From an uncultured Acidobacteriota bacterium (GTDB lineage Bacteria; Acidobacteriota; Thermoanaerobaculia; Multivoradales; UBA5704): a stretch of 64,000 bases of DNA. Below, in pieces: positions 34,198-57,072 of this stretch (the stretch's first letter is position 1; every line of letters starts with the position of its first letter). Location: contig CAWCIU010000002.1 of the NCBI GenBank assembly GCA_963795735.1, forward strand, positions 166,217 through 230,216, in the 5' to 3' direction. The notes under the pieces were generated by a model, which searched no databases, had not been told where the DNA came from, and saw nothing but the letters and a program-made list of their open reading frames with translations. A program made the position numbers and the translations under genes.

Positions 34198-34450
34198 GCC
34201 GTGCCGAAGCTTCGGCGGCTCAGCGAAGCTTCGGCGGCCCAGCGAAGCTTCGGCAGCTCGTCGGGAGCTTCGGCAGCTCAGCGAAGCTTCGGCAGCGTAG
34301 CGAAGCTTCGGCAGCGCAGCGAAGCTTCGGCGGGCCAGCGAAGCTTCGGCAGCCCAGCGCAGCTTCGGCAGGCCAGCGAAGCTTCGGCAGGCCGTCGTAA
34401 GCTTCGGCAGCCCAGCGAAGCTTCGGCAGCGTAGCGAAGCTTCGGCACGG
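34198..34450. repeat. Tandem array of 13 units of a 19-20 bp repeat (consensus CAGCGAAGCTTCGGCAGCN), each with the 10-bp palindrome CGAAGCTTCG
   Basis: Counted directly between the anti-sigma stop (34182) and the end of the convergent acyltransferase gene (34455). Confidence 0.9.
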
Positions 34451-35834: not shown

Positions 35835-36033
35835 GATCGTTTTCTCTCGCCGCGCGCACCTATCCTGAGAGGAGAGGCGCGCGGGCTGGCTCCGAGTGGC
35901 GGGGCTAACTTGCAGGATCTTGCCGACTCTGTCAATCGGCATTTTGGCAAGAAAGGCTCTGTGCTACCCTCCGGGGAAAGCCTTTGAATCGCCCAGGCCC
36001 GACACTCCTCGGGCCGGCGTCAGGAGAAAACCG

Positions 36034-36639
36034 ATGACCGTCAATAATCCGACCCCAAGTACTCCGACCCCAAATACTCCAACCCCAAATAATCCAGCCC
36101 CGAAGAAGAGCTCGCTGGACACCCTCGCCAACATCGCGATCATCGTGGTCTGCGCGATCGCCGCGGTCGTGCTGAGCCTCCAGGTCCGCGACCGGCTGTT
36201 CCCGCAGCGGGCGCCGGGAGCCCCGCCGCAGGCCGAGAAGGGCGAGCAGTACGCCCAGCTCAAGGCGGTGGTGCCGGCCGGCTCGAGCCGCGCCCTGGTG
36301 GTCGCCGTCCAGCCGGGATGCCACTTCTGCAACGACAGCCTGCCCTTCTACAAGACGCTGATCGACCAGCGCAACCAGAAGGATTCGAAGGTCAAGATCG
36401 TCGGCGCCGTCCCCACCACCCCGAAGCCCGAGGACGGCCAGAAGCTCGCCGACGAGGAGTCGCAGAAGTTCGCCACCGCCGGCGCCAAGCCGGACGGCAT
36501 GGTGAACCTCGACTTCGCGGCGGTGAAGGTCCCCGGCACCCCGACCCTCATGCTGGTGGACAACAACGGCAAGATCCTCAACGTCTGGGTCGGCAAGCTC
36601 GACTCGAACGGCGAGCAGGAAGTGCTGAAGGCGCTGTAG
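36034..36639 (+). CDS. Membrane-anchored thioredoxin-fold protein (CxxC)
   Basis: Start MTVNNPT at ATG 36034, with Shine-Dalgarno caGGAGaaaa. TM segment IAIIVVCAIAAVVLSL. CHFC redox motif. Pro/Thr-rich linker. Confidence 0.6.
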   Translation: MTVNNPTPSTPTPNTPTPNNPAPKKSSLDTLANIAIIVVCAIAAVVLSLQVRDRLFPQRAPGAPPQAEKGEQYAQLKAVVPAGSSRALVVAVQPGCHFCNDSLPFYKTLIDQRNQKDSKVKIVGAVPTTPKPEDGQKLADEESQKFATAGAKPDGMVNLDFAAVKVPGTPTLMLVDNNGKILNVWVGKLDSNGEQEVLKAL

Positions 36640-36662
36640 GGGCGATCTCTCTTACACCCCAC

Positions 36663-36693
36663 CCCCTCCTCTCCCGACGCGGGAGGGGAGGGG
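36663..36693 (+). terminator. GC-rich hairpin after the thioredoxin-like gene (CCCCTCCTCTCCCG-acg-CGGGAGGGGAGGGG)
   Basis: 14-bp perfect stem with a 3-nt loop. No U-tract, so function as an intrinsic terminator is uncertain. Confidence 0.4.
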
Positions 36694-36731
36694 AAACCCC
36701 TCCGAATCCTCCACCGCGAAAGCTCCTTCCG

Positions 36732-36747
36732 TGGCACCCCTCTTGCT
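36732..36747 (+). promoter_or_regulatory. Sigma-54 (RpoN) promoter TGGCAC-CCCTC-TTGCT upstream of the YciE-like gene
   Basis: Exact match to the -24/-12 consensus TGGCAC-N5-TTGCW, 49 nt upstream of ATG 36796. Confidence 0.75.
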
Positions 36748-36795
36748 ATCCCTCCTCGCGGGCGATGGTGCCTGTATGGAAAAAAGGAGTGCAAC

Positions 36796-37293
36796 ATGGA
36801 GATCGATTCCCTGAGAAAGCTCTACGTCGAGGAGCTCAAGGACCTGTACAGCGCCGAGAAGCAGATCCTTCAGGCCCTGCCGAAGATGATGAAAAAGGCG
36901 ACCAACCCGAAGCTCAAGCAGGGCTTCGAGGAGCATCTCCGGGTGACCGAGAAGCAGGTCGAGCGCCTGGACCAGATCTTCGAGGAGATCGGCAAGAGCC
37001 CCCGTGGCAAGAAGTGCAAGGCCATGGAAGGCCTGGTCGAGGAGGGCAAGGAGGTCATGCAGGAGGACATGGAGGCCGAGGTGATGGACGCCGCCCTGAT
37101 CGCCTCCGCCCAGCGCATCGAGCACTACGAGATGGCCGGCTACGGCACCTGCCGCACCTGGGCACAGACCCTCGGCGAGAAGAACCAGGCCAAGCTGCTT
37201 CAGCAGACCCTGGACGAAGAGCGGCTGACCGACGAGAAGCTGACCCAGCTCGCCGAGAGCACGATCAACGTCGAGGCGATGGCCGGCGCTTAA
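36796..37293 (+). CDS. YciE/YciF-family (DUF892) ferritin-like stress protein
   Basis: LKDLYSAEKQILQALPKMMKKA...EEHLRVTEKQVERLDQIFEEIG. AAGGAG Shine-Dalgarno. Confidence 0.8.
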   Translation: MEIDSLRKLYVEELKDLYSAEKQILQALPKMMKKATNPKLKQGFEEHLRVTEKQVERLDQIFEEIGKSPRGKKCKAMEGLVEEGKEVMQEDMEAEVMDAALIASAQRIEHYEMAGYGTCRTWAQTLGEKNQAKLLQQTLDEERLTDEKLTQLAESTINVEAMAGA

Positions 37294-37430
37294 AGCCGTC
37301 CGCTCGACCTGAATTGCCAGGGGCGGCCCGCGCGGCCGCCCTGCCAACTCCACCCCGGGCGTGCTTCCTGCAAGATCTCGCCTCCCGGCGGGAAGCCAGA
37401 CGGCGGGTGTGATACCTTCCCGCCCGCAAA

Positions 37431-39338
37431 ATGGTCCACAAAGCCACCCAGACCCACGAGAAGCAAAACCTCCTCGGCCTCTCTCTCGGGGCCCTGGGCA
37501 TCGTCTATGGCGACATCGGCACCAGCCCGCTCTACTCGCTGCGGGAGTGCTTCCACGGCGAGCATGGCATCGCTCCCAGCCACGGCAACGTGCTCGGGGT
37601 GCTGTCGCTGGTCTTCTGGGTGCTCATCGTCACCATCTCGATCAAGTACCTGATCTTCGTGATGCGCGCCGACAACCACGGCGAGGGGGGCATCCTGGCG
37701 CTGATGGCGCTGGTGCCGTCGAAGCTGCGGATCGCCGGCCCGGGAGGGCACTGGGTCCTGGTGGCGCTCGGCATCTTCGGCGCCTCCCTGCTCTACGGCG
37801 ACGGCATGATCACGCCGGCGATCTCGGTGCTCTCGGCGGTCGAGGGGCTGCAGGTGGCGACCCCGTTCTTCAATCCCTACATCATCCCGATCACGCTGGG
37901 GATCCTGTTCGCCCTGTTCCTGATCCAGCAGCGGGGGACGGCCGGGATCGGCAAGCTCTTCGGCCCGGTGATGATCCTCTGGTTCCTGGTGCTGGGCGTC
38001 CTCGGCGTCCTCTGGATCGTGCGCGTCCCCTCGGTGCTCGCCGCGGTCAATCCCTGGCACGCCGTGCGCTTCTTCCTCCACAACCGGGGGCATGGGTTCC
38101 TGGTCCTCGGCTCGGTCTTCCTGGTGGTCACCGGGGGCGAGGCGCTCTACGCCGACATGGGGCACTTCGGACGGCGGCCGATCCGGCTCGCCTGGTTCCT
38201 CCTGGTGCTCCCCTCCCTGCTGCTCAACTACTTCGGCCAGGGGGCGCTGCTGGTGACCCACCCCGACGCCGCGGCGAACCCGTTCTTCGAGCTGTCGGGC
38301 CGGCTCCTCCCCTCCTGGACGCTGTATCCGATGGTGATCCTGTCCACGATCGCCACCATCATCGCCTCGCAGGCGGTGATCTCCGGGGCCTTCTCGCTGA
38401 CCCGCCAGGCGGTGCAGCTCGGCTACGCGCCGCGGATCAAGATCGTCCATACCTCGGGGCGCGAGATCGGCCAGATCTACATCCCCTCGGTCAACTGGGC
38501 GCTGATGCTGGCAACCTTCGGGCTGGTGATCGGCTTCCGGCAGTCGACCAACCTGGCCGCCGCTTACGGCGTGGCGGTCACCGCGACGATGGTGATCACC
38601 ACGGTCCTCGCCTACGTGGTGGCCCGCCAGGTCTGGGGCTGGAAGTTCGCCCTGGTGGCCCCGGTGGCGGCCTTCTTCTTCGTCATCGACTCCGCCTTCT
38701 TCGGCGCCAACATCATCAAGGTGGAGGACGGCGGCTGGTTCCCCCTGCTGGTGGGGATCGCCATCTACACGCTGATGTGCACCTGGAAGAAGGGGCGGCA
38801 GATCCTCGGCGACCGGCTGCAGGCGGACTGCCTGCCGCTCCAGCAGTTCGTCGAGAGCATCAGGCCGGACTCCCCCATCCGGGTGCCCGGCACGGCGGTC
38901 TTCCTCGCTCGCGATCCGCAGGGCACGCCCCCCTCGCTGCTCCACAACCTCAAGCACAACAAGGTGCTGCACTCGCGGGTGATCTTCCTGACGATGGTGA
39001 ACGAGGAGGTGCCGACGGTGCCGGCGGAGGAGCGGCTGGAGATCGAGGACCTGGGCAAGGAGTGCTACCGCGTCCTCGCCCACTACGGGTTCATCCAGAA
39101 CCCGGGGGTGCCCGACGTGCTCCACATCCTGCGCGAGCAGAAGGGGGTCCACCTCGACCCGATGTCGACCACCTTCTTCCTCAGCCGGGAGACGCTGATC
39201 CCCAGCCGCAAGCCCGGGATGGCGATCTGGCGCGAGAAGCTGTTCGCCGTGATGGTCCGCAACGCCCAGCGCCCCACCGACTTCTTCCGGATTCCGGTCA
39301 ACCGGGTGGTGGAGCTGGGGATGCAGGTGCGATTGTAG
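37431..39338 (+). CDS. kup: KUP/HAK/KT potassium uptake transporter
   Basis: ...GALGIVYGDIGTSPLYSLRECF... signature. Confidence 0.92.
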   Translation: MVHKATQTHEKQNLLGLSLGALGIVYGDIGTSPLYSLRECFHGEHGIAPSHGNVLGVLSLVFWVLIVTISIKYLIFVMRADNHGEGGILALMALVPSKLRIAGPGGHWVLVALGIFGASLLYGDGMITPAISVLSAVEGLQVATPFFNPYIIPITLGILFALFLIQQRGTAGIGKLFGPVMILWFLVLGVLGVLWIVRVPSVLAAVNPWHAVRFFLHNRGHGFLVLGSVFLVVTGGEALYADMGHFGRRPIRLAWFLLVLPSLLLNYFGQGALLVTHPDAAANPFFELSGRLLPSWTLYPMVILSTIATIIASQAVISGAFSLTRQAVQLGYAPRIKIVHTSGREIGQIYIPSVNWALMLATFGLVIGFRQSTNLAAAYGVAVTATMVITTVLAYVVARQVWGWKFALVAPVAAFFFVIDSAFFGANIIKVEDGGWFPLLVGIAIYTLMCTWKKGRQILGDRLQADCLPLQQFVESIRPDSPIRVPGTAVFLARDPQGTPPSLLHNLKHNKVLHSRVIFLTMVNEEVPTVPAEERLEIEDLGKECYRVLAHYGFIQNPGVPDVLHILREQKGVHLDPMSTTFFLSRETLIPSRKPGMAIWREKLFAVMVRNAQRPTDFFRIPVNRVVELGMQVRL

Positions 39339-39349
39339 CCCGCCCCCCT

Positions 39350-40921
<1,572 letters not shown>

Positions 40922-41046
40922 GAGCACCACCTAGAAAAAGGTTGATGTGGCTGTCGTCTGTCTTCGAATAATTTCAGCGCGCGAGCTTACCGCAGCGGGC
41001 GGAGCAATCCCAGTGCCAGGCGCCGGGCGCCTGTGGACGGATGGCC

Positions 41047-41103
41047 GTAGGGTGCGCTGTGCGCACCTTCGCGGGCGTTGGAGGTGCGCACAGCGCACCC
41101 TAC
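41047..41103. repeat. Perfect 21-bp inverted repeat GTAGGGTGCGCTGTGCGCACC - 15 nt - GGTGCGCACAGCGCACCCTAC in the divergent dtp/tyrA intergenic region
   Basis: Read directly. Each arm is itself nearly palindromic. Confidence 0.9.
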
Positions 41104-41396
41104 AAAATGCCTCACCGTCTTGCCCAGAGGACAGGCCGTCCACACAACCGTTCCCTCCAGAGGTCGGCCGGAGGACGGAATCCCCCGTCTCTCCTATAGG
41201 ACGAGGCATGGCACTCCCCTTGCGATGGACCCCTGGCGGACAACGGATTCACCCATCAACCCGCGGCAGGAAACCGCCGCGCGGCCTTCCGGGGAAGTCG
41301 GGCGCCCCCGCCCGGCTTCCCTCCTTCCTCGCCCACCGTCGAGCGTAGAATGTCCTCCCTGAACTGCCTTCTGAAATCGGCCTGGAGGAGACGACC

Positions 41397-42509
41397 ATGA
41401 ACCCGCTCGATCCGCTGCCCCATCTGCGGGACTCCATCGCCGAGGTGGACCGCGCCCTGCTCGAGCTGCTGCGCCGCCGCATGGACCTCGCCGCCGAGGT
41501 GGGGCGCGTCAAGGCCGAGGGGGACGCCCCGGTCGTGGTCCGCGACGTCGAGGACCGCGTGCTCGGCCGCGCCCGCCAGCACGCCGAGGCCTGCGGGGTG
41601 TCGGAGGAGGTGATGGAGGCGATGTTCCAGGCGATCATCCGCGGCTCGGTCGAGCGGCAGTACCGGGTGGGGATCTCGCTGCGTGAGCGGCGGGGAGAGC
41701 GGGTGCTGATCGCCGGCGGCGCCGGCGGCATGGGGCGCTGGTTCCGCGGCTTCCTGGAGCTGGCGGGGCACGGCGTGGACCTGGTCGATCCGGCGCTCGG
41801 CAACCTCCCCCGCTCCGCCGGGCGCTTCGCCAGCCTCGGCGAGGTGGAGGACCTGGACGCCTACGCCGCGGTGCTCGTCTCGGTGCCGCTCGCCCGCACC
41901 GCCGGGATCCTGGCGGAGGTGGTCGAGCGGAGCCCGAAGGGGCTGGTGGTGGAGATCGCCTCGATCAAGGCGCCGCTGGAGCCGGCGCTGGCCCGGGCCC
42001 GCGAGCGGGGCGTGCGGGCCTTCGCCCTGCACCCGATGTTCGGACCCAGCAAGTCGTTCTACGAGCCGCTGACCTTCGTGCTCGCCGCTCAAGGGGACCC
42101 GGCGGCCGAGAAGCGGGAGCTCGCGCCCCTGCTGTCGCACCCCTACACCAAGCTGGTGGCCGTCCCCTTCCCCCATCACGACCGCCTGATGGCCTGGCTC
42201 CTGGGCCTCTCCCACCTCACCAACATCCTGTTCGGCGCCGCGATCACCCAGTCGGGGATCGAGCCCGCCGAGCTTCACGCCTGCGCCTCGACGACCTTCA
42301 CCCGCCAGGCGGCGACCGCGCTCTACGTGCTCTCCGAGAACCCCGACCTCTATCTAGACATCCAGCGCCTGAACCCGAACCGGCACGAGGTCTACACCGC
42401 CGCCCGCGAGGCGCTGGCGCAGATCGAGCGGCTGGTCGAGGAGCGCGACCGCGAAGAGTTCGATGCCGTGATGACCGCCGCCCGGCGCGCCCTGACCCGC
42501 GAGCCGTAG
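41397..42509 (+). CDS. tyrA: Bifunctional chorismate mutase / prephenate dehydrogenase
   Basis: N-terminal CM_2 region (…EVDRALLELLRRRMDLAAEVGRVK…) followed by an NAD-binding prephenate dehydrogenase domain (VLIAGGAGGMG…). Confidence 0.85.
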   Translation: MNPLDPLPHLRDSIAEVDRALLELLRRRMDLAAEVGRVKAEGDAPVVVRDVEDRVLGRARQHAEACGVSEEVMEAMFQAIIRGSVERQYRVGISLRERRGERVLIAGGAGGMGRWFRGFLELAGHGVDLVDPALGNLPRSAGRFASLGEVEDLDAYAAVLVSVPLARTAGILAEVVERSPKGLVVEIASIKAPLEPALARARERGVRAFALHPMFGPSKSFYEPLTFVLAAQGDPAAEKRELAPLLSHPYTKLVAVPFPHHDRLMAWLLGLSHLTNILFGAAITQSGIEPAELHACASTTFTRQAATALYVLSENPDLYLDIQRLNPNRHEVYTAAREALAQIERLVEERDREEFDAVMTAARRALTREP

Positions 42510-42519
42510 CGGCCGCCGG

Positions 42520-42975
42520 TCAGGAGCCCTTCTTCGCCTTCGCCTTCTTCGCGGCCGGGGCGCCGCCCGAGGACTCGTTCCCGGCGTCCTTGGCGTCCTT
42601 GGCGTCCTTATTGTCCTTGACGTCCTTGTCCGCCGCCTTCTTGCCCGGCTGCTTCGGTTCCGGCGTGGCGGGTTTCTCCGCGGCCTTCTTGCCTTCGGCG
42701 GCCGCTCCCCGCTTGCGGGCCACGGCGGCGAGGCCGGCCGCGGCGGCGGCCACCCCGGCGACCGCGGCGGCGGCGCCGGCCAGGACCTTGGTCGTGCTGG
42801 AAACGGCGGTCTTGGCGGGGGCGGCGGGCTTCTTGGCAGTGGGGGCGGTCTTCGCGGCGGCGGGCTTGGCGGCGGGCTTTTCTGCCGGCTTGGCGGCCGG
42901 CTTGGCGGCTGGGCCGCTCGCCCCGCCGGTCTTTTCCGTCCCCTCCGCAGACCCCTTCTTGTCCTTGGCGGCCAT
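42520..42975 (-). CDS. Lys/Ala/Pro-rich low-complexity protein with a central hydrophobic segment (histone H1-like tail composition)
   Basis: ATG 42973-42975 preceded by AAGGAG. (AKPA)n-type repeats. Convergent with tyrA. Confidence 0.45.
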   Translation of the reverse strand: MAAKDKKGSAEGTEKTGGASGPAAKPAAKPAEKPAAKPAAAKTAPTAKKPAAPAKTAVSSTTKVLAGAAAAVAGVAAAAAGLAAVARKRGAAAEGKKAAEKPATPEPKQPGKKAADKDVKDNKDAKDAKDAGNESSGGAPAAKKAKAKKGS

Positions 42976-43056
42976 CGAGAGCTCCTTTCAAGAGCAAAAC
43001 AGATTGAAGTCCTGCGTCCGAGCACGCTAGCAAGAAGCGTGCAAAAGCGAGCCTTC

Positions 43057-44181
43057 CTACGGCCCGCCGAGCGCCTGGGCGAGGTCGGCGATGAGGTCGT
43101 CCGGGTGCTCGATCCCGACCGAGACGCGGATCAGCTCCTGCGGCGTCCGGGAGCCGGGGCCCTCGCTGGTCGCCCGGTGCTCGATCAGGCTCTCGACGCC
43201 GCCGAGCGAGGTGGCGCGGGTGAACAGGCGCACGCGGGAGACGGCGCGCAGGGCCGCCTCGCGTCCGCCCGCGGCGCGAAAGGAGAGCATGGCGCCGAAA
43301 CCGGACATCTGCCGGGCGGCGATCTCGTTCCCGGGATGCGAGGGGAGCCCCGGATAGTGCACCGCCGCCACGCTCGGAAACTCCGCCAGGGCGCGGGCCA
43401 CGGCGAGCCCCGTCGCGCTCTGCACGGCCATCCGGCAGGCGAGGGTGCGCAGGCCGCGCAGCACCAGCCAGGAATTGAACGGCGAGGCGACCGCCCCCAG
43501 GACGTGGCGCAGGTGGCGGACCCGCTCGCAGAGCTCGTCCCGGCGGGCGAAGACGAGGGCGCCCCCCTGGACGTCGCTGTGGCCGCCGAAGTACTTGGTC
43601 GTCGAATGGAGGACCACGTCGGCCCCGAGCTCGAGGGGCCGCTGGAGCGCCGGGGTGGCGAAGGTGTTGTCCGCCAGGGTCAGGGCTCCGGCCCGGCGGG
43701 CGAGGGCCACGGCGCCGGCGAGGTCGACCACCTGGAGCAGCGGGTTGGAGGGAGTCTCCAGCCAGACCAGGCGGGTCTCCGGGCGGATCGCCGCGGCGAG
43801 GGCCGCGAGGTCGCCCATCGCCACGAAGTCCGAGCGGATCCCCCAGTTGGGGAGGAACTCACCGGCGGCGGTGCGGAAGCCGTGGTAGACGTCGTCGGGG
43901 AAGACCACGTGGGAGCCCGGCGGCAGAGCCTGGAGGAGGGCGATGCCGGCGGCCATGCCGGAGGCAAAGACGAGCGCCGCCTCCCCCCCTTCGAGCGGGC
44001 CGAGGGCCTCCTCGAGCTGGTCCTGGTTGGGATTCGACTCGCGGATGTAGGTGTACCCGCCGAGCGGGGCGCTCTCCGGGTCGCGGGCGAAGGTGGTCGA
44101 GAGGACGATGGGAGGGGAGACCGACCCGGAAGCGGGATCGATCCGATGGCCGGCGTGCACCACGCGGGTCTCGAATTTCAT
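43057..44181 (-). CDS. PLP-dependent cystathionine gamma-synthase / beta-lyase family enzyme (Cys/Met metabolism)
   Basis: ...HSTTKYFGGHSD... PLP-lysine region. MKFETRVVHAG... N-terminus. Confidence 0.85.
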   Translation of the reverse strand: MKFETRVVHAGHRIDPASGSVSPPIVLSTTFARDPESAPLGGYTYIRESNPNQDQLEEALGPLEGGEAALVFASGMAAGIALLQALPPGSHVVFPDDVYHGFRTAAGEFLPNWGIRSDFVAMGDLAALAAAIRPETRLVWLETPSNPLLQVVDLAGAVALARRAGALTLADNTFATPALQRPLELGADVVLHSTTKYFGGHSDVQGGALVFARRDELCERVRHLRHVLGAVASPFNSWLVLRGLRTLACRMAVQSATGLAVARALAEFPSVAAVHYPGLPSHPGNEIAARQMSGFGAMLSFRAAGGREAALRAVSRVRLFTRATSLGGVESLIEHRATSEGPGSRTPQELIRVSVGIEHPDDLIADLAQALGGP

Positions 44182-44268
44182 CCCGGGAGCGTAGCGCGGC
44201 CGGGCAGAAACGAAAAGGGCCGGCGCTGCGAAGCGCCGGCCCCGGGAACCTGCGAGAGGAGGGAGCGG

Positions 44269-45930
44269 TCAGTGGCTGGCGTGAGCGGCGCAGCTCTGGA
44301 TGGCGCCCTTCTGCGAGCCCGTGATCGTGCCGTTGCTCTTGAGGCCGTCGGTGAGGTGCGCGACGCAGCTCACGAAGGCGCCATGGTTGCGCGCGCCGAC
44401 CGTGCAGTCGTTGATCTGGTCGGTGATGCGGCAGCCGGTGGCGAAGGTCGTGTTGGGCACGCCCGAGTCGCAGCCGTCGATGACGACGGTGGCGCTGCGC
44501 GACGAGCCGATGCACTGGTCGATGCCGTCCGGCACGCCGTCGCCGTCGGAGAACCAGCCGATGTCGATCATCTCCTGGCGGGTCAGATCGACGCTGTGGG
44601 TGAGGTCGCCGTTGATCGCCGGCTCCATCAGCAGGTTGGGGAAGGCGATCGGATCCCAGTGCGAGATCGACGAGCCGGGAACCACCGGGTTCGGGGCGTT
44701 GAGCAGCACCAGGCCCTGCGGATTGGCGCCGGCGAGCACGTTGAGGTTGACGCCGAGCGTGGCGTTGACCGTGCCGGCGGCGAGCGCCGCCTTGACGTTG
44801 TTGCCGTCGGCCAGGCTGATGCGCGCCGACGGGATGGTGATCGTCGGGTCGGCGCCGCCGAGGCCCGCCGGCGGGCTGCCGGCGACGTTGTCGGCGATGA
44901 GCACGGCGATGGCGCCGGCGAGTTGAGCGTTCTTCACCTTGACCACGAAGCCGCAGACGCCGCGGTCCATGAGAGCGATCTTGCCCGTGAGGTCGTCGGT
45001 GACCGCGGCGCAGCCGTTGGTCGCGGCGCCGCTGTGGGCGAGGACGACGTTGGCCGTCACGCCCGGCGAGGTGAGGGCGGGGCCGAAGGCCGCCGTGCCG
45101 ACCCGGGTGGTGCCCAGGGAGGCGGGGGCGTTGAAGGTCACCAGCGGCGTGCCGGGCTGCAGCACGTGCGGGGCCGCGGCGGTGACGTTGATGCCGGTCC
45201 ACACCACGTGGTTGGTGTCGGTGGTCGCCGTCTTGCGCTCGGCGTCGGTCATCTGCGGCCAGTTCTTGCCGATCACGGTGTCGCGGTTGTAGGTGCCGTA
45301 GACGTCCGGGAACCCGGCGAGCAGCGCGCCGCTGTTCTTGTCATAGAAGCCGGAGAAGCCCAGGCCGTGGGCGAACTCGTGGAGCAGCACCGTGGCGAGG
45401 TCGATGTTGGTGCCGTGGTTGTCGTCCAGGCCGTAGTACCAGCCGAGCGTGGTCAGGCAGCCGGGGGTGCCCAGCGCGCTGTTGAAGCGCGCGATGATGT
45501 CGTCCGCCGCGGTGCCGTTCGGACCCGGCGCGAGGTCGAAACCGGACAGCTTGTTGGCCAGGGCCACGTGGTACCAGGTGTTCTGGAGCTCGGCGTTCGG
45601 GAAGTTGCCGAAGATCTGGATGGTGCCGGCCGAGCCGAGGGTGCCCGCGGTCGGCGTGCAGGCCAGCGGCACGAAGGACGACTGGATGTAGATGGTCACC
45701 GGGCTGTCCAGGATCGAGCCCCAGACGCTGGCGGCGTACTGGAAGACGTTCAGCCGCTGCTGGCCGATCGTCGTTCCGGGGTTGCCGCCGATGGGAGCGG
45801 CCGGGGTGGGATCGTTGAAGCCCACGCCGGGAGCGTTGGAGTTGACGATGACGATGTTGGCGGCGCCGAAGACGGGACCGGTGAGGAGCAGGGCGAGGGC
45901 GCAGAGGCCGAGGAGCTTGATCGTCTTCAT
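44269..45930 (-). CDS. Secreted zinc metalloprotease (HExxH) with a PA domain and a C-terminal Cys-rich, Asp-rich region
   Basis: Start trimmed to MKTIKLLGLCALALLLTGPVFGA (ATG 45928-45930). LLHEFAHGLGF motif. PA-like segment GKIALMDRGVCGFVVKVKNAQLAGAIAVLIADN. Confidence 0.75.
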   Translation of the reverse strand: MKTIKLLGLCALALLLTGPVFGAANIVIVNSNAPGVGFNDPTPAAPIGGNPGTTIGQQRLNVFQYAASVWGSILDSPVTIYIQSSFVPLACTPTAGTLGSAGTIQIFGNFPNAELQNTWYHVALANKLSGFDLAPGPNGTAADDIIARFNSALGTPGCLTTLGWYYGLDDNHGTNIDLATVLLHEFAHGLGFSGFYDKNSGALLAGFPDVYGTYNRDTVIGKNWPQMTDAERKTATTDTNHVVWTGINVTAAAPHVLQPGTPLVTFNAPASLGTTRVGTAAFGPALTSPGVTANVVLAHSGAATNGCAAVTDDLTGKIALMDRGVCGFVVKVKNAQLAGAIAVLIADNVAGSPPAGLGGADPTITIPSARISLADGNNVKAALAAGTVNATLGVNLNVLAGANPQGLVLLNAPNPVVPGSSISHWDPIAFPNLLMEPAINGDLTHSVDLTRQEMIDIGWFSDGDGVPDGIDQCIGSSRSATVVIDGCDSGVPNTTFATGCRITDQINDCTVGARNHGAFVSCVAHLTDGLKSNGTITGSQKGAIQSCAAHASH

Positions 45931-45935
45931 GGTGT

Positions 45936-46349
45936 CTACTTCTCCTCGAGCGCGGGAGTGCTGTTCAGGAAGGCGTTGGCGTCGGCGGCGCTGTCCACGC
46001 AGACCTGGCGGACGCTGCCGTCCGGCTGAATCTGCACCAGGGAGATGTTGAGGAACGTGTCGGTGAGGTCCATCGACATCGTGCCGTCCGGCGTCTGGAC
46101 GACCTGGGCGTTGCTCGCGCTCTTGGTCATCGCCTGGATGCCGGCGGTCAGAGCCCGGTTCTCGGCGGCGGTCGGCTGGCGGAGCTTGCCCTGCGCGTCG
46201 ACGGCCACCGTCAGGCCGGCCGACTCCTGCTGGCCGGCGTGGGCCGGCTTTCCGTCTCCGGCAAAGGCCGGAGCGGCGAGGCTGAGGGTCGCCGCGGCGG
46301 CGAGACCCAGGGTGGCCAGGCGGACACCCTTTCCATGCAGATTCGTCAT
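45936..46349 (-). CDS. Small secreted protein (137 aa) co-transcribed upstream of the metalloprotease
   Basis: Signal peptide MTNLHGKGVRLATLGLAAAATLSLAAPAFA. A 5-nt gap separates it from the protease gene. Confidence 0.55.
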   Translation of the reverse strand: MTNLHGKGVRLATLGLAAAATLSLAAPAFAGDGKPAHAGQQESAGLTVAVDAQGKLRQPTAAENRALTAGIQAMTKSASNAQVVQTPDGTMSMDLTDTFLNISLVQIQPDGSVRQVCVDSAADANAFLNSTPALEEK

Positions 46350-46786
46350 GTACCAATCCTCCCAAAAATGGGGTTTGATCGAAGCTCGTCCACGGAACCG
46401 GCACCATGCCAGGCCCGCGAAGCGGAAAGTCCAGAGTCAAGAATTCAAATCGGGTGATACGGGGGCCAAGGTTTCAGTGCCGGGGCCGGAAGAGATCGGG
46501 ACATCTGTTCCTACGCCGAGACAACTTTACCGCCGTACGGTGTCCTGCGTCTTTCTTTTCGGCAGCCCAGCCGTCTCGGTGAGACCCGAAGCTTTGCGTC
46601 ACCGCCTCACGGCGGCTTTGCCTTTTCGATGCGTGGAAGCACAGTGTGGGGTCGCAAAACAAACCTGTCAAGCGAATCGGCGAACATTTTTAAAACTTCT
46701 CCGCCCTACTCAAAATTACTCTGCCGGGAGGGGTTGGTGCCGGGCCCTTTCGGGCGAAAAACAGGTAAAAATTTCAGCCGACGACT

Positions 46787-47998
46787 TTACTCGAGCAGAT
46801 CAACCTCGTAGCCGCGCTCGCGGAGGGCCTGTCGCAGCTCCTCGATGTGGCCCGCGTTGCGGGTCTCCAGGGTGAGGTCCACCTGGGCTTCCCAGAACCC
46901 CGCGTGCATGAAGACGCGGTCGTGCTGGATGCGCACCACGTTGCCGCCGGCGGCGCCGACCCCCTGGAGCAGCTCGGCCAGCGCCCCCGGGCGGTCGGGA
47001 ACGCGGGTGCGCAGGCGCACCAGGCGCCGGCCCTCGACCAGGTGACGGTCGATGATGCGGGCGAGCAGCGCGGCGTCGATGTTGGCGCCCGAGAGGAGCA
47101 TGACCACCCGGCGGTCCGCCGTGTCGGGAATGTGGTGGCCGGCCACGGCGGCCAGGGTGGCGGCGGCGGCCCCCTCGGCGACGATCTTGCCGGTCTCCAG
47201 GAGCCGCACGAGGGCGGCCCGGATCTCGTCCTCGGTGACGGTGACCACGCCGTCGACGAAGCGGCGGATGTGCTCGAAGGTCTTCTCGCCCGGCCGCTTG
47301 ACGGCGATGCCGTCCGCCACCGACCGCGCCGCCGGGCAGGCGACGAGATGCCCCGCCCGGAAGCTCTCGGCCATCGCCGGCGCGGCCTCCGTCTGCACGC
47401 CGTAGATCCGCACCTCTGGCCGCATCGCCTTCACCGCCACGGCGATGCCGGAGATCAGCCCGCCGCCGCCGATGGGAACGACGATCGCCTCCACCTCCGG
47501 CACGGCCTCCAGGATCTCGAGGCCGATCGTCCCCTGGCCGGCCATCACCTGCTCGTCGTCGAAGGGGTGGATGAAGGCGAGCCCCCGCTCGCGCTCGAGC
47601 CGTAGCGCCGCCTCGTAGGCCTCGTCGAAGATCTCCCCGGCCAGCACGACCTCGCCGCCGAGCCGCCGGGTGTTCTCGATCTTGATCAGCGGGGTCGTCA
47701 CCGGCATGACGATGACGGAGGGCACCCCGATCTGGGCGGCGCTGAAGGCCACCCCCTGGGCATGGTTGCCGGCGGAGGCGGTGATGACCCCCCGCCCTAC
47801 CTGGGCGGGCGGCAGGGAGGCGATCTTGTTGAAAGCGCCGCGGACCTTGAAGGAGCCGGTGAGCTGGAGGGTCTCGTGCTTGAACCAGGCGTGCGCGCCC
47901 AGCTCGTCGGAGAAAGCTCGCGACCGCAGGCAGGGGGTGGCCTGCACCACTCCACGGAGGCGCGCGCGCGCCGCTTCGATGTCTTGCAGAGCGATCAA
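46787..47998 (-). CDS. ilvA: Threonine ammonia-lyase (biosynthetic type, with a C-terminal regulatory domain)
   Basis: PLP site ...HETLQLTGSFKVRGAFNKI... TTG start. Confidence 0.9.
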   Translation of the reverse strand: MIALQDIEAARARLRGVVQATPCLRSRAFSDELGAHAWFKHETLQLTGSFKVRGAFNKIASLPPAQVGRGVITASAGNHAQGVAFSAAQIGVPSVIVMPVTTPLIKIENTRRLGGEVVLAGEIFDEAYEAALRLERERGLAFIHPFDDEQVMAGQGTIGLEILEAVPEVEAIVVPIGGGGLISGIAVAVKAMRPEVRIYGVQTEAAPAMAESFRAGHLVACPAARSVADGIAVKRPGEKTFEHIRRFVDGVVTVTEDEIRAALVRLLETGKIVAEGAAAATLAAVAGHHIPDTADRRVVMLLSGANIDAALLARIIDRHLVEGRRLVRLRTRVPDRPGALAELLQGVGAAGGNVVRIQHDRVFMHAGFWEAQVDLTLETRNAGHIEELRQALRERGYEVDLLE

Positions 47999-48089
47999 GC
48001 CGGGAGCCTCAACGGCGGGCAGTGTAGCAGGAGGAGAGGAGATGGCGGCAGGGGGCGCGGCGGGCGCCCCCGCGATCCAAAGGGATGGC

Positions 48090-48674
48090 CTACGGGTGGC
48101 GGACGGCGATTTCCCGGGCGGCTTCCTGGACGCCGTCGCCGGCCGGCCGGGCGGTCGCCTGGGTGTAGCTGGCGCGCTTCATCAGTGCCTCGGCCAGGCT
48201 GGAGCGCACCTGCTCGGCCATCTGGCCGTCGAGCTGGACGGCCTTGCCGAAGGCCGCGCGGGCGGCGTCCATGTCCCCCTTGAGGGCGAGCAGGGAGCCG
48301 AGCTGGTCGTAGGCCCGGGCCTGGTCCTGGGGGGAGGAGAAGAGGGCGAGGGCCATGCGGGTCATCTGGAAACCCGCGTCGTACTGCCGGGCTCCGCTAT
48401 AGGCGCGGGCTACGCCGAGCAGGCACTCGGGGCAGGGGCCGCCCTCCAGCTCGCTCGCCCGCTCGAACTCGGCGGCGGCGCGCTGGAAGTCCCCCTTCTG
48501 CACGAGCTCCTCGCCGCGCTGCAACGCTCTCGCGGTGTCCTCCTGGAGGGTGGGCTCCTGGAGAGTGGCATTCTGAAGGGTGGCATCCCCGGCCCAGGCG
48601 GCAGGGGCGAACGAAAAGGCGGCCAGGGCTCCGAGCATGGGGAGGATCGACAGGCTGCGGCTTCGTAGAGTCAT
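48090..48674 (-). CDS. Secreted TPR-like repeat protein
   Basis: Signal peptide MTLRSRSLSILPMLGALAAFSFAPAAWA followed by TPR-like helices. Confidence 0.55.
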   Translation of the reverse strand: MTLRSRSLSILPMLGALAAFSFAPAAWAGDATLQNATLQEPTLQEDTARALQRGEELVQKGDFQRAAAEFERASELEGGPCPECLLGVARAYSGARQYDAGFQMTRMALALFSSPQDQARAYDQLGSLLALKGDMDAARAAFGKAVQLDGQMAEQVRSSLAEALMKRASYTQATARPAGDGVQEAAREIAVRHP

Positions 48675-48842
48675 GGCCGTTGCTCCTTACTTAGTCACGA
48701 GACATGCAAAGCTGGGCGGGGCATCGTGCTCTCTCACGCCATAGGGTAAAGGCAAGGAGCGTGCCAGGGGTGGATCGGACCCGACCGGAGTCCGCGGACC
48801 GGCCGGGCCATTCTCGCTCCCGCTTCCCTTCGTGGCACCTCA

Positions 48843-48858
48843 TGGCACCTCTCTTGCT
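48843..48858 (+). promoter_or_regulatory. Sigma-54 promoter TGGCAC-CTCTC-TTGCT upstream of DUF4142 gene 1
   Basis: Exact consensus, 51 nt upstream of ATG 48909. A second, mis-spaced TGGCAC lies 10 nt upstream. Confidence 0.75.
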
Positions 48859-48908
48859 TCTTTGTATCTTCGACCGATGAGTCTCATCTCTTCAAGAAGG
48901 GAGACAAT

Positions 48909-49571
48909 ATGAGCAAGAACACCCACCGCATCACCATGGCCGCCCTGGCGGGCCTCCTGGCGCTGACCCCGGCGTTCGCCCAGAGCACGGGGACCGCCAC
49001 CGGCTCCATGTCCGGCTCGGCCGCCAAGAGCACCAAGAAGAAGACCACCACCACCACGAGCACCTCCTCCTCGATGCTCAGCGCCGCCGACACCAAGTTC
49101 GTCAAGGCCGCGGCCTCGGGCGGCATGGAAGAGGTCGAGCTCGGCAAACTGGCGGCGCAGAAGGCCTCCAATCCCGACGTCAAGAGCTTCGGCCAGAAGA
49201 TGGTCGACGACCACACCAAGGCCAACGACCAGCTCAAGCAGGTCGCTTCCCAGAAGAACGTGACCCTGCCGGCGGGCATGAACAACATGCAGAAGCACGA
49301 CCAGGCCAAGCTCGCCAAGCTCTCCGGCGCCGCCTTCGACCGGAGCTACGTCAGCATGATGGTCAAGGACCACAAGAAGGACGTCGCCGACTTCCAGAAG
49401 GAATCGACGAGCGGCAAGGACACGGACGTCAAGAGCTTCGCCTCGACGACCCTGCCCACCCTGCAGGACCACCTGAAAATGGTGCAGGACCTCTCCTCGA
49501 GCCTCAACAAGAAGAAGACCGCGAGCACGACCACCAAGACCACCACCAAGAAGAGCAGCTCGGGCCGCTAG
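48909..49571 (+). CDS. DUF4142-family secreted protein, paralog 1
   Basis: Signal peptide plus a Ser/Thr-rich linker. Core ...DTKFVKAAASGGMEEVELGKLAAQKASNPDVKSFGQKMVDDHTKANDQLK... The TAG stop incorporates the IS630 target TA. Confidence 0.8.
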   Translation: MSKNTHRITMAALAGLLALTPAFAQSTGTATGSMSGSAAKSTKKKTTTTTSTSSSMLSAADTKFVKAAASGGMEEVELGKLAAQKASNPDVKSFGQKMVDDHTKANDQLKQVASQKNVTLPAGMNNMQKHDQAKLAKLSGAAFDRSYVSMMVKDHKKDVADFQKESTSGKDTDVKSFASTTLPTLQDHLKMVQDLSSSLNKKKTASTTTKTTTKKSSSGR

Positions 49572-50738
49572 TGTAGTGGGTCAAACAGATGTGTCCTTAA
49601 CCAGAGCCTGCCGAGCGCGTGTGACCTTTTCAAGGATGTCGCTTGCGGTCTTCGTCCAGATAAAGGGTTTGGGATCTTCGTTGTGACGAGCCAGATACTC
49701 ATGGATCGCCGTAACCAGATCTGCGACGCTGCGAAAGATGCCCCGACGCAACCGGTTTTCTGTCAGGTCACGGAAGAACCTTTCGACCATGTTGAGCCAT
49801 GAGGCGCTGGTTGGGGTGAAATGAATCCTGAACCGCGGATGGCGAGCCAGCCAAGCTTGAACCTTCGGATGCTTGTGAGTCGCATAGTTGTCCGCGATCA
49901 GATGAATCTCCGGGCTCTTCGGGGTCTCTCGGTCAATGAGGCTCAGGAACTTAATCCACTCCTGATGGCGATGCCGCGGCATGCAGGTCCCGATCACCTT
50001 CCCGTTCAGCGTATTGAGCGCAGTGAACAGTGTCGTCGTTCCGTGGCGCTTGTAGTCGTGGGTCATCGTGCCATGGCGGCCCGGCACAAGGGGAAGGCCT
50101 GGCTGGGTGCGGTCGAGCGCCTGAATTTGGCTTTTTTCATCGACAGAGAAAACCAGCGCATGCTCTGGAGGGTTCAGGTAAAGACCGACGACATCCTCCA
50201 ACTTCTCCACGAACCTCGCATCCCGACTCAATTTGAAGGTTCGAGTCAGGTGAGGCTTCAGGCCATGACGTCTCCAGACACGACCGATCGTGCTCGGGCT
50301 CAGCCCCATCATCTTGGCCAGACTACGGGTGCTCCAGTGCGTTCCCGCCACTGGCGTCTCTTGCGTCGTCTTGCGCACGATCTCCCGAATTACATCCTCG
50401 CCAATCGAAGGCAGCCTCCCGGCCCGAGGGGCATCCTTCAAGATGCCGACGGTCCGCTTCTCGGCAAAACGACGGCGCCAAACACCAACTGTCCGTCGCG
50501 CTGCACCAGAAATCTCAGCAATCTCTCGGTTCTGCTTGCCTTCAGCAGCCAGCAGGACGATTCTCGCCCTCTCTGCCACGCGCACGGATACCCTACGGCC
50601 ACGTGCAAGCTTCTCAAGCTCAGCCCTCTCCTCAGGCGAAAGGACTATCGAGACAGCTACCTTCATGTTCCCTCCTGGAGGTATTCCCTACCAGGAAAGG
50701 ATAACAGAAGTTGCCGAACATCGGACCCACTACACTAG
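49568..50738 (-). mobile_element. IS630-family insertion sequence, copy 2; identical to copy 1 and in the same orientation
   Basis: Offset of exactly 20557 bp from copy 1 across the element. The transposase ORFs are identical. Confidence 0.9.
49581..50666 (-). CDS. IS630-family DDE transposase (361 aa), copy 2
   Basis: Identical protein to 29024-30109. Confidence 0.9.
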
Positions 50739-50784
50739 ATCCGCTCCACCGGCAGGACCGCTCGATGCCACGGAGGTCCCTCCG

Positions 50785-50800
50785 TGGCACTTCTCTTGCT
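50785..50800 (+). promoter_or_regulatory. Sigma-54 promoter TGGCAC-TTCTC-TTGCT upstream of DUF4142 gene 2
   Basis: Exact consensus, 78 nt upstream of ATG 50878. Overlapped by the perfect inverted repeat GCCACGGAGG-tc-CCTCCGTGGC. Confidence 0.75.
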
Positions 50801-50877: not shown

Positions 50878-51558
50878 ATGAACAAGAGCAGCAACCGCAT
50901 CGCCTTCGCGATCCTCGCCGGCCTTCTGGCGCTGGCCCCGGCCTTCGCGCAGAACCAGGGGGCCACCTCGGGCTCGAACACCACCGGTTCGTCGGGCAGC
51001 GGGTCGTCGGGCAGCGGGTCGTCCAGCGGCACGATGTCGAGGTCGTCCTCGTCCTCGATGTCCTCTTCGAAGCTCAGCATGGGCGACACCAAGTTCCTCA
51101 AGGACGCGGCGGAGTCCGGCATGGCCGAGGTCGCGCTCGGGCAGCTGGCGGCGTCGAAGGCCACCAGCGCCGACATCAAGAGCTTCGGCCAGAAGATGGT
51201 CGATGATCACGGCAAGGCCAACGACCAGCTCAAGCAGCTCGCCGCGCAGAAGGGCGTGACCCTTCCGGACGGCCCCTCCATGATGCAGAAGCACGACGCC
51301 GACCGGCTTTCCAGGATGTCGGGCGCCGGCTTCGACCGGGCGTTCATGGACCAGATGGTCAAGGACCACAAGAAGGTCGTCGCCGAGTTCGATCGCGTGT
51401 CCAAGGGCGCCAAGGACTCCGACGTCAAGAGCTTCGCCTCGTCGACCCTGCCCACCCTGCAGGACCATCTCAAGATGGCGCAGGACCTCGACTCCACGGT
51501 CGGCGGCAAGAAGGGCTCCAGCAGCTCCAGGGGCACGAAGAGCGGCTCGAGCCACTAG
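50878..51558 (+). CDS. DUF4142-family secreted protein, paralog 2
   Basis: Start trimmed to MNKSSNRIAFAILAGLLALAPAFA (ATG 50878, Shine-Dalgarno AGAGAGGAAG). The upstream portion of the ORF-track call is IS sequence. Core is about 60% identical to paralog 1. Confidence 0.8.
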   Translation: MNKSSNRIAFAILAGLLALAPAFAQNQGATSGSNTTGSSGSGSSGSGSSSGTMSRSSSSSMSSSKLSMGDTKFLKDAAESGMAEVALGQLAASKATSADIKSFGQKMVDDHGKANDQLKQLAAQKGVTLPDGPSMMQKHDADRLSRMSGAGFDRAFMDQMVKDHKKVVAEFDRVSKGAKDSDVKSFASSTLPTLQDHLKMAQDLDSTVGGKKGSSSSRGTKSGSSH

Positions 51559-51568
51559 CCCGATCTCT

Positions 51569-51634
51569 GTAGGGGCGGCCCTATGTGGCCGCCCTGTTCT
51601 CCACCTCAGGGCGGCCACATAAGGCCACCCCTAC
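51569..51634. repeat. 27-bp inverted repeat (2 mismatches) GTAGGGGCGGCCCTATGTGGCCGCCCT - 12 nt - AGGGCGGCCACATAAGGCCACCCCTAC downstream of DUF4142 gene 2
   Basis: Read directly. It shares the GTAGGG...CCCTAC termini with the repeat at 41047. Confidence 0.85.
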
Positions 51635-51660
51635 CCCCCCCTTCTGTACAATCCCCTTCC

Positions 51661-52779
51661 ATGATCGACGGCTCTCTGGACCGGCTGCCCCGGACGCGGG
51701 AGGCCATAGAGGCAGGCATCCGCGACCGCCTCCACCTCGGCGCGCAGCTCCACGTCTCGCTCCACGGCGAGCCGGTGGCAGACGCAGACGCCGCGCTGGG
51801 GGAGAACCGGCCGGGCGAGCCGCTCACCCGCGATCACCTGATGCTCTGGCTCTCCTCGACCAAGCCGGTGCCGGCGGTCGCCATCGCCCAGCTCTGGGAG
51901 CGCGGGCGGCTCGAACTGGACGATCCCGTGGCCCGGCACATCCCCGAGTTCGCCGCCTACGGCAAGGAGGGGATCACCCTGCGCCATCTCCTCACCCACA
52001 CCGGCGGCATCCGGATGCTCGACACCGGCTGGCCGCGGGCGACCTGGGAGGAGATCGTGGCGAAGATCTGCGCCATGAAGCCGGAGCCCCGCTGGGTCCC
52101 CGGGCGGAAGGCCGGCTATCACCAGGCGTCGAGCTGGTTCATCCTCGGCGAGGTGGTCCAGCGGGTGGGGGGCCTTCCCTTCCCGGTCTACGTCCGCCGG
52201 GAGATCTTCGAGCCGCTCGGGATGGCGGACTCCTGGATCGGCATGCCTCCCGAGCGCTATCTCTCTTACCGGCAAGCCGGCCGGATCGGCGCGATGTGGA
52301 ACACCGAAGGAGAGGGGTTACAGGACCACGGCTGGGACAGCGAGGAGCGCTGCGTCGCCCCCAGCCCGGGCGGCAACGGCTACGGCCCGATGCGGGATCT
52401 CGCCCGCTTCTACGAGATGCTGCTGGGGAGGGGCTCCTGGCGCGGCCGCCGCGTCCTGCTGCCGCAGACCGTCGAGGCCTTCACCTCGCCCCACCGGGTC
52501 GGGATGATGGACGCCACCTTCAAGCACGTCCTCGACTGGGGGCTGGGGTTCATCGTCAATTCGCTCCAGTACGGAGCCGAGACGGTCCCCTACGGCTACG
52601 GCCACCACGCCTCTCCCCGAACTTTCGGCCACAGCGGCTACCGCTCCTCCACCGGCTTCGCCGACCCGGAGCGGGGGCTGGCCGTGGCGCTGGCCTTCAA
52701 CGGCACGCCGGCCAACGAGCGGCACGAACAGCGGATCCGCTCGGTGCTCGACGCGGTCTACGAGGATCTCGGGGGATAG
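51661..52779 (+). CDS. Serine hydrolase of the beta-lactamase / esterase (class C-like) family
   Basis: S-x-x-K motif LSSTKPV. Start trimmed to MIDGSLDRLP (ATG 51661). Confidence 0.7.
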   Translation: MIDGSLDRLPRTREAIEAGIRDRLHLGAQLHVSLHGEPVADADAALGENRPGEPLTRDHLMLWLSSTKPVPAVAIAQLWERGRLELDDPVARHIPEFAAYGKEGITLRHLLTHTGGIRMLDTGWPRATWEEIVAKICAMKPEPRWVPGRKAGYHQASSWFILGEVVQRVGGLPFPVYVRREIFEPLGMADSWIGMPPERYLSYRQAGRIGAMWNTEGEGLQDHGWDSEERCVAPSPGGNGYGPMRDLARFYEMLLGRGSWRGRRVLLPQTVEAFTSPHRVGMMDATFKHVLDWGLGFIVNSLQYGAETVPYGYGHHASPRTFGHSGYRSSTGFADPERGLAVALAFNGTPANERHEQRIRSVLDAVYEDLGG

Positions 52780-56957: not shown

Positions 56958-57072
56958 CGCGATCCTCTCCTCGTTACTGTTCTGTTATAGACATTAGAGC
57001 ATAGATAGGTAGCCCAAGGGAATACCGCGCTCACGTCCAAATGGCTCGCGGCTTGCATTTACGGAACCTCGA

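Follow-up and report, generated by a model that had tools for sequence, protein, structure and literature searches.

Is a group of putative stress genes in an uncultured acidobacterium controlled by sigma-54 (RpoN), and do these genes form a regulon of their own? The question is raised by a stretch of 64,000 nucleotides (GenBank assembly GCA_963795735.1, contig CAWCIU010000002.1, positions 166,217 to 230,216; hereafter, the window), for which a preliminary description had reported three perfect sigma-54 promoters of the form TGGCAC-N5-TTGCT, upstream of a DUF892 gene and of two DUF4142 paralogs, and had taken them to define a small RpoN regulon of stress-type genes. Homologs of its proteins place the window in the class Thermoanaerobaculia of the phylum Acidobacteriota. 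Comparison with related genomes makes it highly probable that the three motifs are genuine -24/-12 promoters, among at least six, probably seven, that lie within about 20 kb of this chromosome and belong to separate transcription units.

The canonical sigma-54 consensus is TGGCACG-N4-TTGCW. The window contains four exact matches to TGGCAC-N5-TTGCT, three on the plus strand and one on the minus strand (Table 1), compared to a mean of 0.02 in dinucleotide-preserving shuffles, none of which reached four in 100 trials. Two further sites in promoter position deviate by a single mismatch, the 41209 site ending in TTGCG and the 48751 site in TTGCC. A simple weighted scan of the window gave its top ranks to these six sites and to a variant at 57042 (TGGCTC-N5-TTGCA), all of them located between 36.7 and 57.1 kb. 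Thus, the three matches first described are real, but the count was too low: four sites are exact, two near-exact and one is a variant. All seven are intergenic and oriented toward a gene, with about 15-173 nt between the end of the motif and the ATG, and in each of them, including the TGGCTC variant, the GG of the -24 box and the GC of the -12 box are kept 10 nt apart. For the 36732, 48843 and 50785 sites this distance is 48, 50 and 77 nt, and the genes downstream are as described. The extended similarity that had also been ascribed to these three sites, tCCgTGGCACnnCTCTTGCT, is direct at two of them; at 48843, CGTGGCAC sits in a tandem copy offset by 10 nt (48833-48841). The -24 box of this promoter is in fact duplicated in tandem with a 10-nt period (48833-48851, TGGCACCTC-A-TGGCACCTC), a duplication that is absent from the 96%-identical relative L166 (relatives are cited by locus number), which has a single TGGCAT. 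Two other candidates were rejected as promoters: the match at 43029-43044 (TTGCAC..TTGCT) is without the invariant GG, and the one at 38054 lies inside a gene and is without TTGC. The G+C content of the window is 65-72%, and real genes could be told from spurious open reading frames by codon-position G+C; genes were assigned by Pfam.

Orthologous loci carry the same motifs. In the six closest relatives of the DUF892 gene recovered by a metagenome scan (L081-L086, 70-81% identical), as well as in L090 and L165, the motif precedes the ATG by 65-72 nt, while the DNA farther upstream is unalignable among the orthologs. For DUF4142, an alignment scan of the genome collection yielded 80 loci (1.76 Mb), 25 of which have a relaxed form of the motif 60-170 nt upstream of the gene, where about 0.1 would be expected; these include 20 of the 21 syntenic Thermoanaerobaculia loci. 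When both strands of all 80 loci were considered, 45 of 52 relaxed hits fell on promoter positions of DUF4142, of a divergent gene for a TPR protein (~180 codons) or of tyrA, and the remaining seven give a calculated background of ~0.1 hits per 32 kb of upstream windows. The TPR ortholog has its own sigma-54-type promoter in all 17 loci that carry it. Upstream of the gene for a POT peptide transporter, the promoter was found in four of the five contigs with POT orthologs that were fetched (L161, L162, L163 and L165), and the same four carry the promoter of the divergent tyrA gene, which brings the orthologous instances of the latter to eight (L008, L010, L021 and the window being the others). 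In all, the comparison yielded 64 promoter instances. That motifs are retained at orthologous positions while the intergenic flanks diverge is strong evidence for function. In the 53 DUF4142 loci without a sigma-54 motif, which are mostly from outside the Thermoanaerobaculia, no shared promoter of the EcfG or sigma-70 type was found upstream of DUF4142.

On these grounds, it appears very improbable that the motifs are something other than promoters, be it chance matches, fragments of repeat elements, sites that sigma-54 occupies without transcription, or sites of another protein. It is true that many non-promoter sigma-54 binding sites have been reported genome-wide in E. coli (PMC4591121), and that the two DUF4142 promoters share ancestry via gene duplication; yet coincidence is hard to reconcile with the chance expectation given above, all sites are intergenic, directed at genes and kept across genomes with diverged flanks, the motif is borne by five unrelated gene families, and the 50785 motif is not contained in the neighbouring IS630 insertion sequence (IS), which ends 46 nt before it. 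Several points do weigh against the promoter reading. The fixed columns (100%) of the promoter frequency table are partly circular, as the motif itself had served to collect the instances; what escapes this circularity is the share of orthologs in which the motif occurs at a constrained distance, seen against their diverged flanks. The -24 box at 57042 has a T in place of a usually conserved A, and because of this departure from the consensus we place lower confidence in this element. A search of the non-coding DNA detected no recognisable enhancer for the YciF-like (DUF892), TPR or DUF4142 promoters. A scan of the promoter regions found no match to a sigma-70-type consensus nearby, but it was not modelled on promoters of Acidobacteriota, so that additional promoters are possible. 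Finally, the case is one of sequence comparison, and its view of rpoN and of activator genes is that of the 64-kb window and the ortholog loci. What it shows directly is that the motifs are present, where they are placed and how far they exceed chance, that they are kept in orthologs, which genes they precede and how the IS came to be inserted. It is from such comparison that we infer sigma-54 dependence, the positions of transcription starts and the identity of the activators.

The sigma-54 holoenzyme remains in a closed complex until an AAA+ bacterial enhancer-binding protein (bEBP) remodels it with ATP, and transcription starts ~12 nt after the GC of the -12 box. By analogy, sigma-54 RNA polymerase would bind each of the sites in the window as a closed complex, which a bEBP would remodel at the expense of ATP, so that transcription would proceed from ~12 nt downstream of the -12 GC. 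Five units are probably controlled in this way: a gene for a YciF-like protein of ferritin-like fold, with a palindrome of its own at about +3 to +15; the divergent POT and tyrA genes, with a common conserved upstream block as candidate enhancer; a class-wide back-to-back pair, which would express a secreted CPxC-containing TPR protein and a secreted, CopM/DUF305-like DUF4142 protein; DUF4142 paralog 2, whose promoter overlaps the terminator-like hairpin of paralog 1; and a DUF4202/HD gene with a variant -24 box. No sequence coding for GAFTGA, ESELFGH or an RpoN box is present in the window, and no bEBP signature occurs within ~6 kb of any Thermoanaerobaculia ortholog. Across 1.3 Mb of fetched loci, the search for bEBP and RpoN signatures returned a single bEBP, in L134, an unrelated contig without the promoter. 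Since neither the window nor the surroundings of any ortholog contain a bEBP gene, the activator must have its gene elsewhere, just as the preliminary description had proposed. RpoN itself is encoded in all three Acidobacteria genomes of an earlier survey (PMC3372290, Table 1).

Table 1. Genes, predicted sigma-54 promoters and other elements of the window (coordinates refer to the window; a point denotes no strand).
Feature	Coordinates	Strand	Basis or remark
DUF892 (YciF-like, ferritin-like, cytoplasmic)	36796-37293	+	Pfam DUF892, E 9e-61
Kup potassium transporter	37431-39338	+	Pfam
POT peptide transporter	39350-40930	-	Pfam PTR2, E 3e-70
tyrA-like chorismate mutase / prephenate dehydrogenase	41397-42509	+	Pfam CM_2 and PDH
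Secreted TPR protein	48090-48674	-	Pfam; signal peptide
DUF4142 paralog 1	48909-49571	+	Pfam, E 2e-48
DDE_3 transposase	49581-50666	-	Pfam DDE_3, E 2e-19, and helix-turn-helix
DUF4142 paralog 2	50878-51558	+	Pfam, E 2e-46
Beta-lactamase fold protein	51583-52779	+	Pfam
DUF4202 / HD domain protein	57073-58074	+	Pfam
Predicted sigma-54 promoter TGGCACCCCTCTTGCT, YciF-like gene	36732-36747	+	Exact match; predicted transcription start near 36758
Predicted sigma-54 promoter TGGCACTGGGATTGCT, POT gene	41003-41018	-	Exact match, 72 nt upstream of gene
Predicted sigma-54 promoter TGGCACTCCCCTTGCG, tyrA-like gene	41209-41224	+	One mismatch; leader ~162 nt
Predicted sigma-54 promoter TGGCACGCTCCTTGCC, TPR gene	48751-48766	-	One mismatch; back to back with DUF4142 promoter
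Predicted sigma-54 promoter TGGCACCTCTCTTGCT, DUF4142 paralog 1	48843-48858	+	Exact match
Predicted sigma-54 promoter TGGCACTTCTCTTGCT, DUF4142 paralog 2	50785-50800	+	Exact match; near-identical promoter in L166
Probable variant sigma-54-type element TGGCTCGCGGCTTGCA, DUF4202/HD gene	57042-57057	+	15 nt before ATG
Palindrome GGGCGATGGTGCC (consensus GGCAATGGTGCC), YciF-like leader	36760-36772	+	About +3 to +15 of predicted transcript
Conserved block between POT and tyrA promoters, candidate enhancer (upstream activating sequence)	41117-41165	.	Conserved in L161, L162, L163, L165
IS630-family insertion sequence	49566-50738	-	Transposase, terminal inverted repeats, second copy
Terminator-like hairpin, DUF4142 paralog 1	50766-50789	+	Terminator scan, 10-bp stem

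The product of the first unit had been labelled YciE-like. Its assignment to the DUF892 family stands, but among proteins in the PDB its match to YciF (4eru, E 1e-43) is far stronger than that to YciE (3ogh, E 4e-4). Besides the promoter, the sole conserved non-coding element of this unit is the leader palindrome GGCAATGGTGCC, which 8 of 8 YciF-like orthologs, and also L165, have 13-19 nt past the -12 box. Two of 28 DUF4142 leaders have it too, and no TPR, tyrA or POT leader does; it is a candidate for a repressor operator or a short 5' hairpin. The possibility that the palindrome supplies an upstream start codon was rejected, as its ATG is in frame in some orthologs only and all of them have a ribosome-binding site ahead of the annotated ATG. 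In L083, the stop codon of the neighbouring upstream gene is 3 nt from the -24 box, which makes a conventional non-coding upstream enhancer unlikely at that locus. The order of a redoxin-like gene, the sigma-54-type promoter, the YciF-like gene and Kup is kept in close relatives (35896-39338 in the window; L081-L086), and the 137 nt that separate the YciF-like gene from Kup form strong hairpins that lack a U-tract, so that Kup may or may not share the transcript starting at the sigma-54-type promoter.

The -24 boxes of the divergent TPR/DUF4142 pair stand back to back. Most genomes have 19-58 nt between them, the window has 76 nt and L166 about 100 nt. When the DNA from the TPR start codon to that of DUF4142 was searched for k-mers in 14 genomes, only ribosome-binding sites rose above the shuffle background, the promoters being otherwise the sole shared elements. 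A gene for a secreted DUF885 protein is inserted between TPR and DUF4142 in L002 (4094-5883), L003, L012 and L031; the promoters are then ~1.9 kb apart and both are kept. The TPR proteins of the window and its 17 orthologs have a signal peptide and an invariant CPxC within the motif G-x-C-P-x-C-L, which suggests a periplasmic metal-binding or thiol-redox site. The DUF4142 proteins have a signal peptide and a Ser/Thr-rich linker; their core contains invariant His, Met, Asp and Glu positions. In an AlphaFold model, this core has a predicted local distance difference test score (pLDDT) above 90. The model's best superpositions are those with DUF305 (3bt5) and CopM, and it can be superimposed on YciF as well. 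For the DUF305 and CopM structures (PDB 5fej, 5ffc and 3bt5), the target-normalised template-modelling scores are 0.78-0.85 at an identity of only 11-18%, and sequence by itself yields no more than a weak match (E 0.017). Judging from the structural matches, the YciF-like and DUF4142 genes would encode cytoplasmic and secreted versions of a ferritin-like fold. The label 'stress-type' seems a reasonable one for both products as far as it can be read from their sequences, and the CPxC-TPR/DUF4142 pair may serve in metal or redox stress of the envelope.

The promoter of DUF4142 paralog 2 is overlapped by a 10-bp inverted repeat, for which two roles had been offered, that of a terminator of the upstream paralog and that of a regulator site. 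The repeat is real (arms 50767-50776 and 50779-50788) and was slightly extended by a terminator scan. Its 3' arm is at the same time the -24 box of the promoter, and the pyrimidine-rich tail, CTTCTCTTGC, is the promoter's spacer. The stem has seven GC pairs among its 10 bp, and the fold (-25.7 kcal/mol, z -3.45) is better than those of all 200 shuffles. In L166, which is free of the IS, the hairpin follows the stop codon of paralog 1 by ~22 nt, giving the native order stop codon, hairpin, promoter. Scan hit, fold energy and position in L166 make the terminator the better of the two options, with an efficiency that is uncertain because the U-tract is interrupted. The element that separates paralog 1 from this hairpin in the window (1173 bp) is 100% identical to 29009-30181, has terminal inverted repeats of ~15 bp and encodes a DDE_3 transposase, which identifies it as a member of the IS630 family. 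It is inserted at the CTAG stop codon of paralog 1, with the empty CTAG site visible in L166, and duplication of TA keeps the stop intact. The insertion is recent. Because of it, paralog 1 is now separated by 1.17 kb from its terminator and from the paralog 2 promoter. The first copy of the IS is found within a stretch of lower G+C content (24-32 kb, 58-61%), which may be an island.

Between the POT and tyrA promoters, the block listed in Table 1 is the sole conserved intergenic stretch besides the promoters themselves in the window, L161, L162, L163 and L165. It contains two direct repeats, CCAGAGGAC (41124-41132) and CCAGAGGTC (41157-41165), ~33 nt apart, which read G(T/A)CCTCTGG on the minus strand. 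The block keeps a constant distance to the tyrA -24 box, whereas its distance to the POT box is variable because unrelated palindromic insertions lie between. We regard it as a candidate enhancer. Two 17-bp dyads, GGTGCGC-N3-GCGCACC (41051-41067 and 41083-41099), were also considered as an NtrC-type enhancer and rejected, as none of the orthologous POT/tyrA intergenic regions contains them. At the corresponding place L165 carries another palindromic insertion, and given both observations the dyads were treated as a lineage-specific palindromic insertion. They form the arms of a perfect 21-bp inverted repeat (41047-41103), each arm itself being a 17-bp dyad, whose insertion between the POT and tyrA promoters is peculiar to this genome. 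Further palindromes rich in G+C, of the type CCCTCTCCC...GGGAGAGGG, are present at intergenic sites here (36655-36695) and in relatives (L164, L165), and have the look of repetitive extragenic palindromic (REP) or miniature inverted-repeat transposable (MITE) elements.

The tyrA leader (41225-41396, plus strand; ~160 nt) is itself highly conserved, also in L008, L010, L021, L161, L162 and L165. Two hairpins within it are almost invariant: one is CCGCGGC..GCCGCGCGG, the other a 13-bp stem, GGGGAAGCCGGGC..GCCCGGCTTCCC, with a CCUCC-rich tract after it. One-sided changes in the stems among orthologs are almost all compatible with G-U pairing. A TAGAAT box conserved 25-55 nt before the tyrA ATG might be a second promoter. 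Neither a leader peptide rich in aromatic codons nor an Rfam match was found in this leader, which is possibly a new cis-regulatory leader for aromatic amino acid biosynthesis.

The variant element of the DUF4202/HD gene is part of a 27-nt stretch (the element and 11 nt downstream) that is nearly identical before the DUF4202 orthologs in L001, L005, L010, L016 and L031. Its predicted leader in the window would be only ~5 nt long, and no Shine-Dalgarno sequence is seen in the window, L001 or L005.

Do the YciF-like and the two DUF4142 genes nonetheless constitute one small stress regulon under a single bEBP? Their promoters, in both ortholog families, have a common pyrimidine-rich spacer, TGGCAC-YYCTC-TTGCT, often with CCG just before the -24 box, and both products have a ferritin-like fold. 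However, we consider such a regulon unlikely, since the two families share no conserved upstream element: the DNA above the YciF-like promoter is unalignable and in L083 nearly abuts coding sequence, nothing is conserved between the TPR and DUF4142 start codons, and the YciF-like palindrome is all but confined to its own unit. Moreover, four more sigma-54-type promoters in the same 20 kb belong to non-stress genes. The earlier notion of a small RpoN regulon of stress-type genes does not hold: the other promoters would drive the POT transporter, the chorismate mutase/prephenate dehydrogenase, the secreted TPR protein and the DUF4202/HD protein, and in the non-coding sequence searched no activator motif common to all member promoters was found, the conserved promoter-proximal elements being specific to each unit. 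From one unit to the next, different sequences are conserved around the promoters, so that nothing points to a single activator site common to all.

A related issue is how the TPR/DUF4142 pair, and perhaps the YciF-like promoter, could be activated at all. One possibility, which we advance tentatively, is that activation proceeds without a conventional upstream enhancer, either by a bEBP that, like FlgR and CtcC, has no DNA-binding domain and works from solution, or from enhancers inside the flanking coding or leader sequence. In most genomes the close spacing of the -24 boxes leaves no room for an enhancer between them, only promoters and ribosome-binding sites are conserved between the start codons of the 14 genomes, and coding sequence abuts the YciF-like promoter in L083. 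But the k-mer search was confined to non-coding sequence, as conservation of the coding sequence confounds it, and enhancers that co-evolve with their activator may escape such a search. Carried further, this line of thought leads to a rather speculative picture, in which TPR/DUF4142 would be a bidirectional sigma-54 pair without an intergenic enhancer, with two holoenzymes back to back at a distance of 19-58 bp, and one activator, non-DNA-binding or bound in transcribed regions, would fire both and so control a hitherto unrecognised envelope metal/redox stress module of a CPxC-TPR and a CopM-like DUF4142 protein; sigma-54 would perhaps be heavily used across the class, in place of the RpoS- or ECF-type (extracytoplasmic function) control of homologous stress genes in other bacteria.

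Elsewhere in the window, the gene for a 723-codon PA-domain protein (44269-46440, minus strand) is preceded by a c-di-GMP-I-GGC riboswitch (46557-46631, minus strand), which scores 62.3 bits and so exceeds the gathering score. At 34205-34447, a 19-nt unit, CGAAGCTTCGGCAGCCCAG, occurs in 12.7 tandem copies; the palindrome CGAAGCTTCG is part of this unit. The array is intergenic, between a gene for a zf-HC2 anti-sigma-like protein and an acyltransferase gene.

Sigma-54 regulation has hardly been examined in Acidobacteriota, and a 2025 survey of sigma-54 regulons across phyla does not mention them. The sites described here would be a first promoter set validated by comparison across genomes for an abundant uncultured soil class. 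Through them, DUF4142 and DUF892, both domains of unknown function, gain a regulatory context, and the same family of stress proteins would stand under a different sigma factor than in E. coli, where the yciGFE stress operon is reported to be RpoS-dependent (PMC2907692). The likeness between the two systems lies in the YciF-type DUF892 family, generally regarded as a stress protein, and the difference in control by sigma-54 here, as predicted, and by sigma-S there. In the literature searched, no paper links yciF or DUF4142 to sigma-54.

As promoters, the sites are ordinary in kind, and the compact divergent pair without a visible enhancer is their most unusual aspect. They resemble canonical sigma-54 promoters in the exact 10-nt spacing of GG and GC, in the full or near match of hexamer and pentamer, in their orientation toward genes, and in the exterior and transport functions of these genes, toward which the genes downstream of sigma-54 promoters have been proposed to be biased (PMC3162934). 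They differ from them in the pyrimidine-rich spacer that the YciF-like and DUF4142 sites have instead of the usual G after TGGCAC, in having no recognisable enhancer at most sites, and in their occurrence in a class, the Thermoanaerobaculia, without an experimentally studied sigma-54 system. The DUF4142 proteins, in turn, are like the copper-binding four-helix bundles of CopM and DUF305 in predicted core fold, secretion and invariant His, Met, Asp and Glu residues and unlike them in sequence, as the low identity shows; metal binding would be by analogy.

For the TPR/DUF4142 pair, the nearest architectural analogues would be zraP/zraSR and hyc/hyp of E. coli. These are divergent sigma-54 pairs with activator sites between the promoters; in zra, one arm codes for the activator itself, and the products include a periplasmic metal-binding stress protein. 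Both the E. coli pairs and TPR/DUF4142 have two sigma-54-type promoters that diverge from one intergenic region, and the periplasmic zra product parallels the secreted, CopM-like DUF4142 protein. In contrast to the E. coli systems, however, TPR/DUF4142 is without conserved sites between the promoters, and genes for a bEBP or a sensor kinase are missing from both arms; with a divergent arm that encodes only a secreted TPR protein, it is not a module of the zraP/zraSR type. This compact divergent architecture may serve as a test case for enhancer-independent activation.

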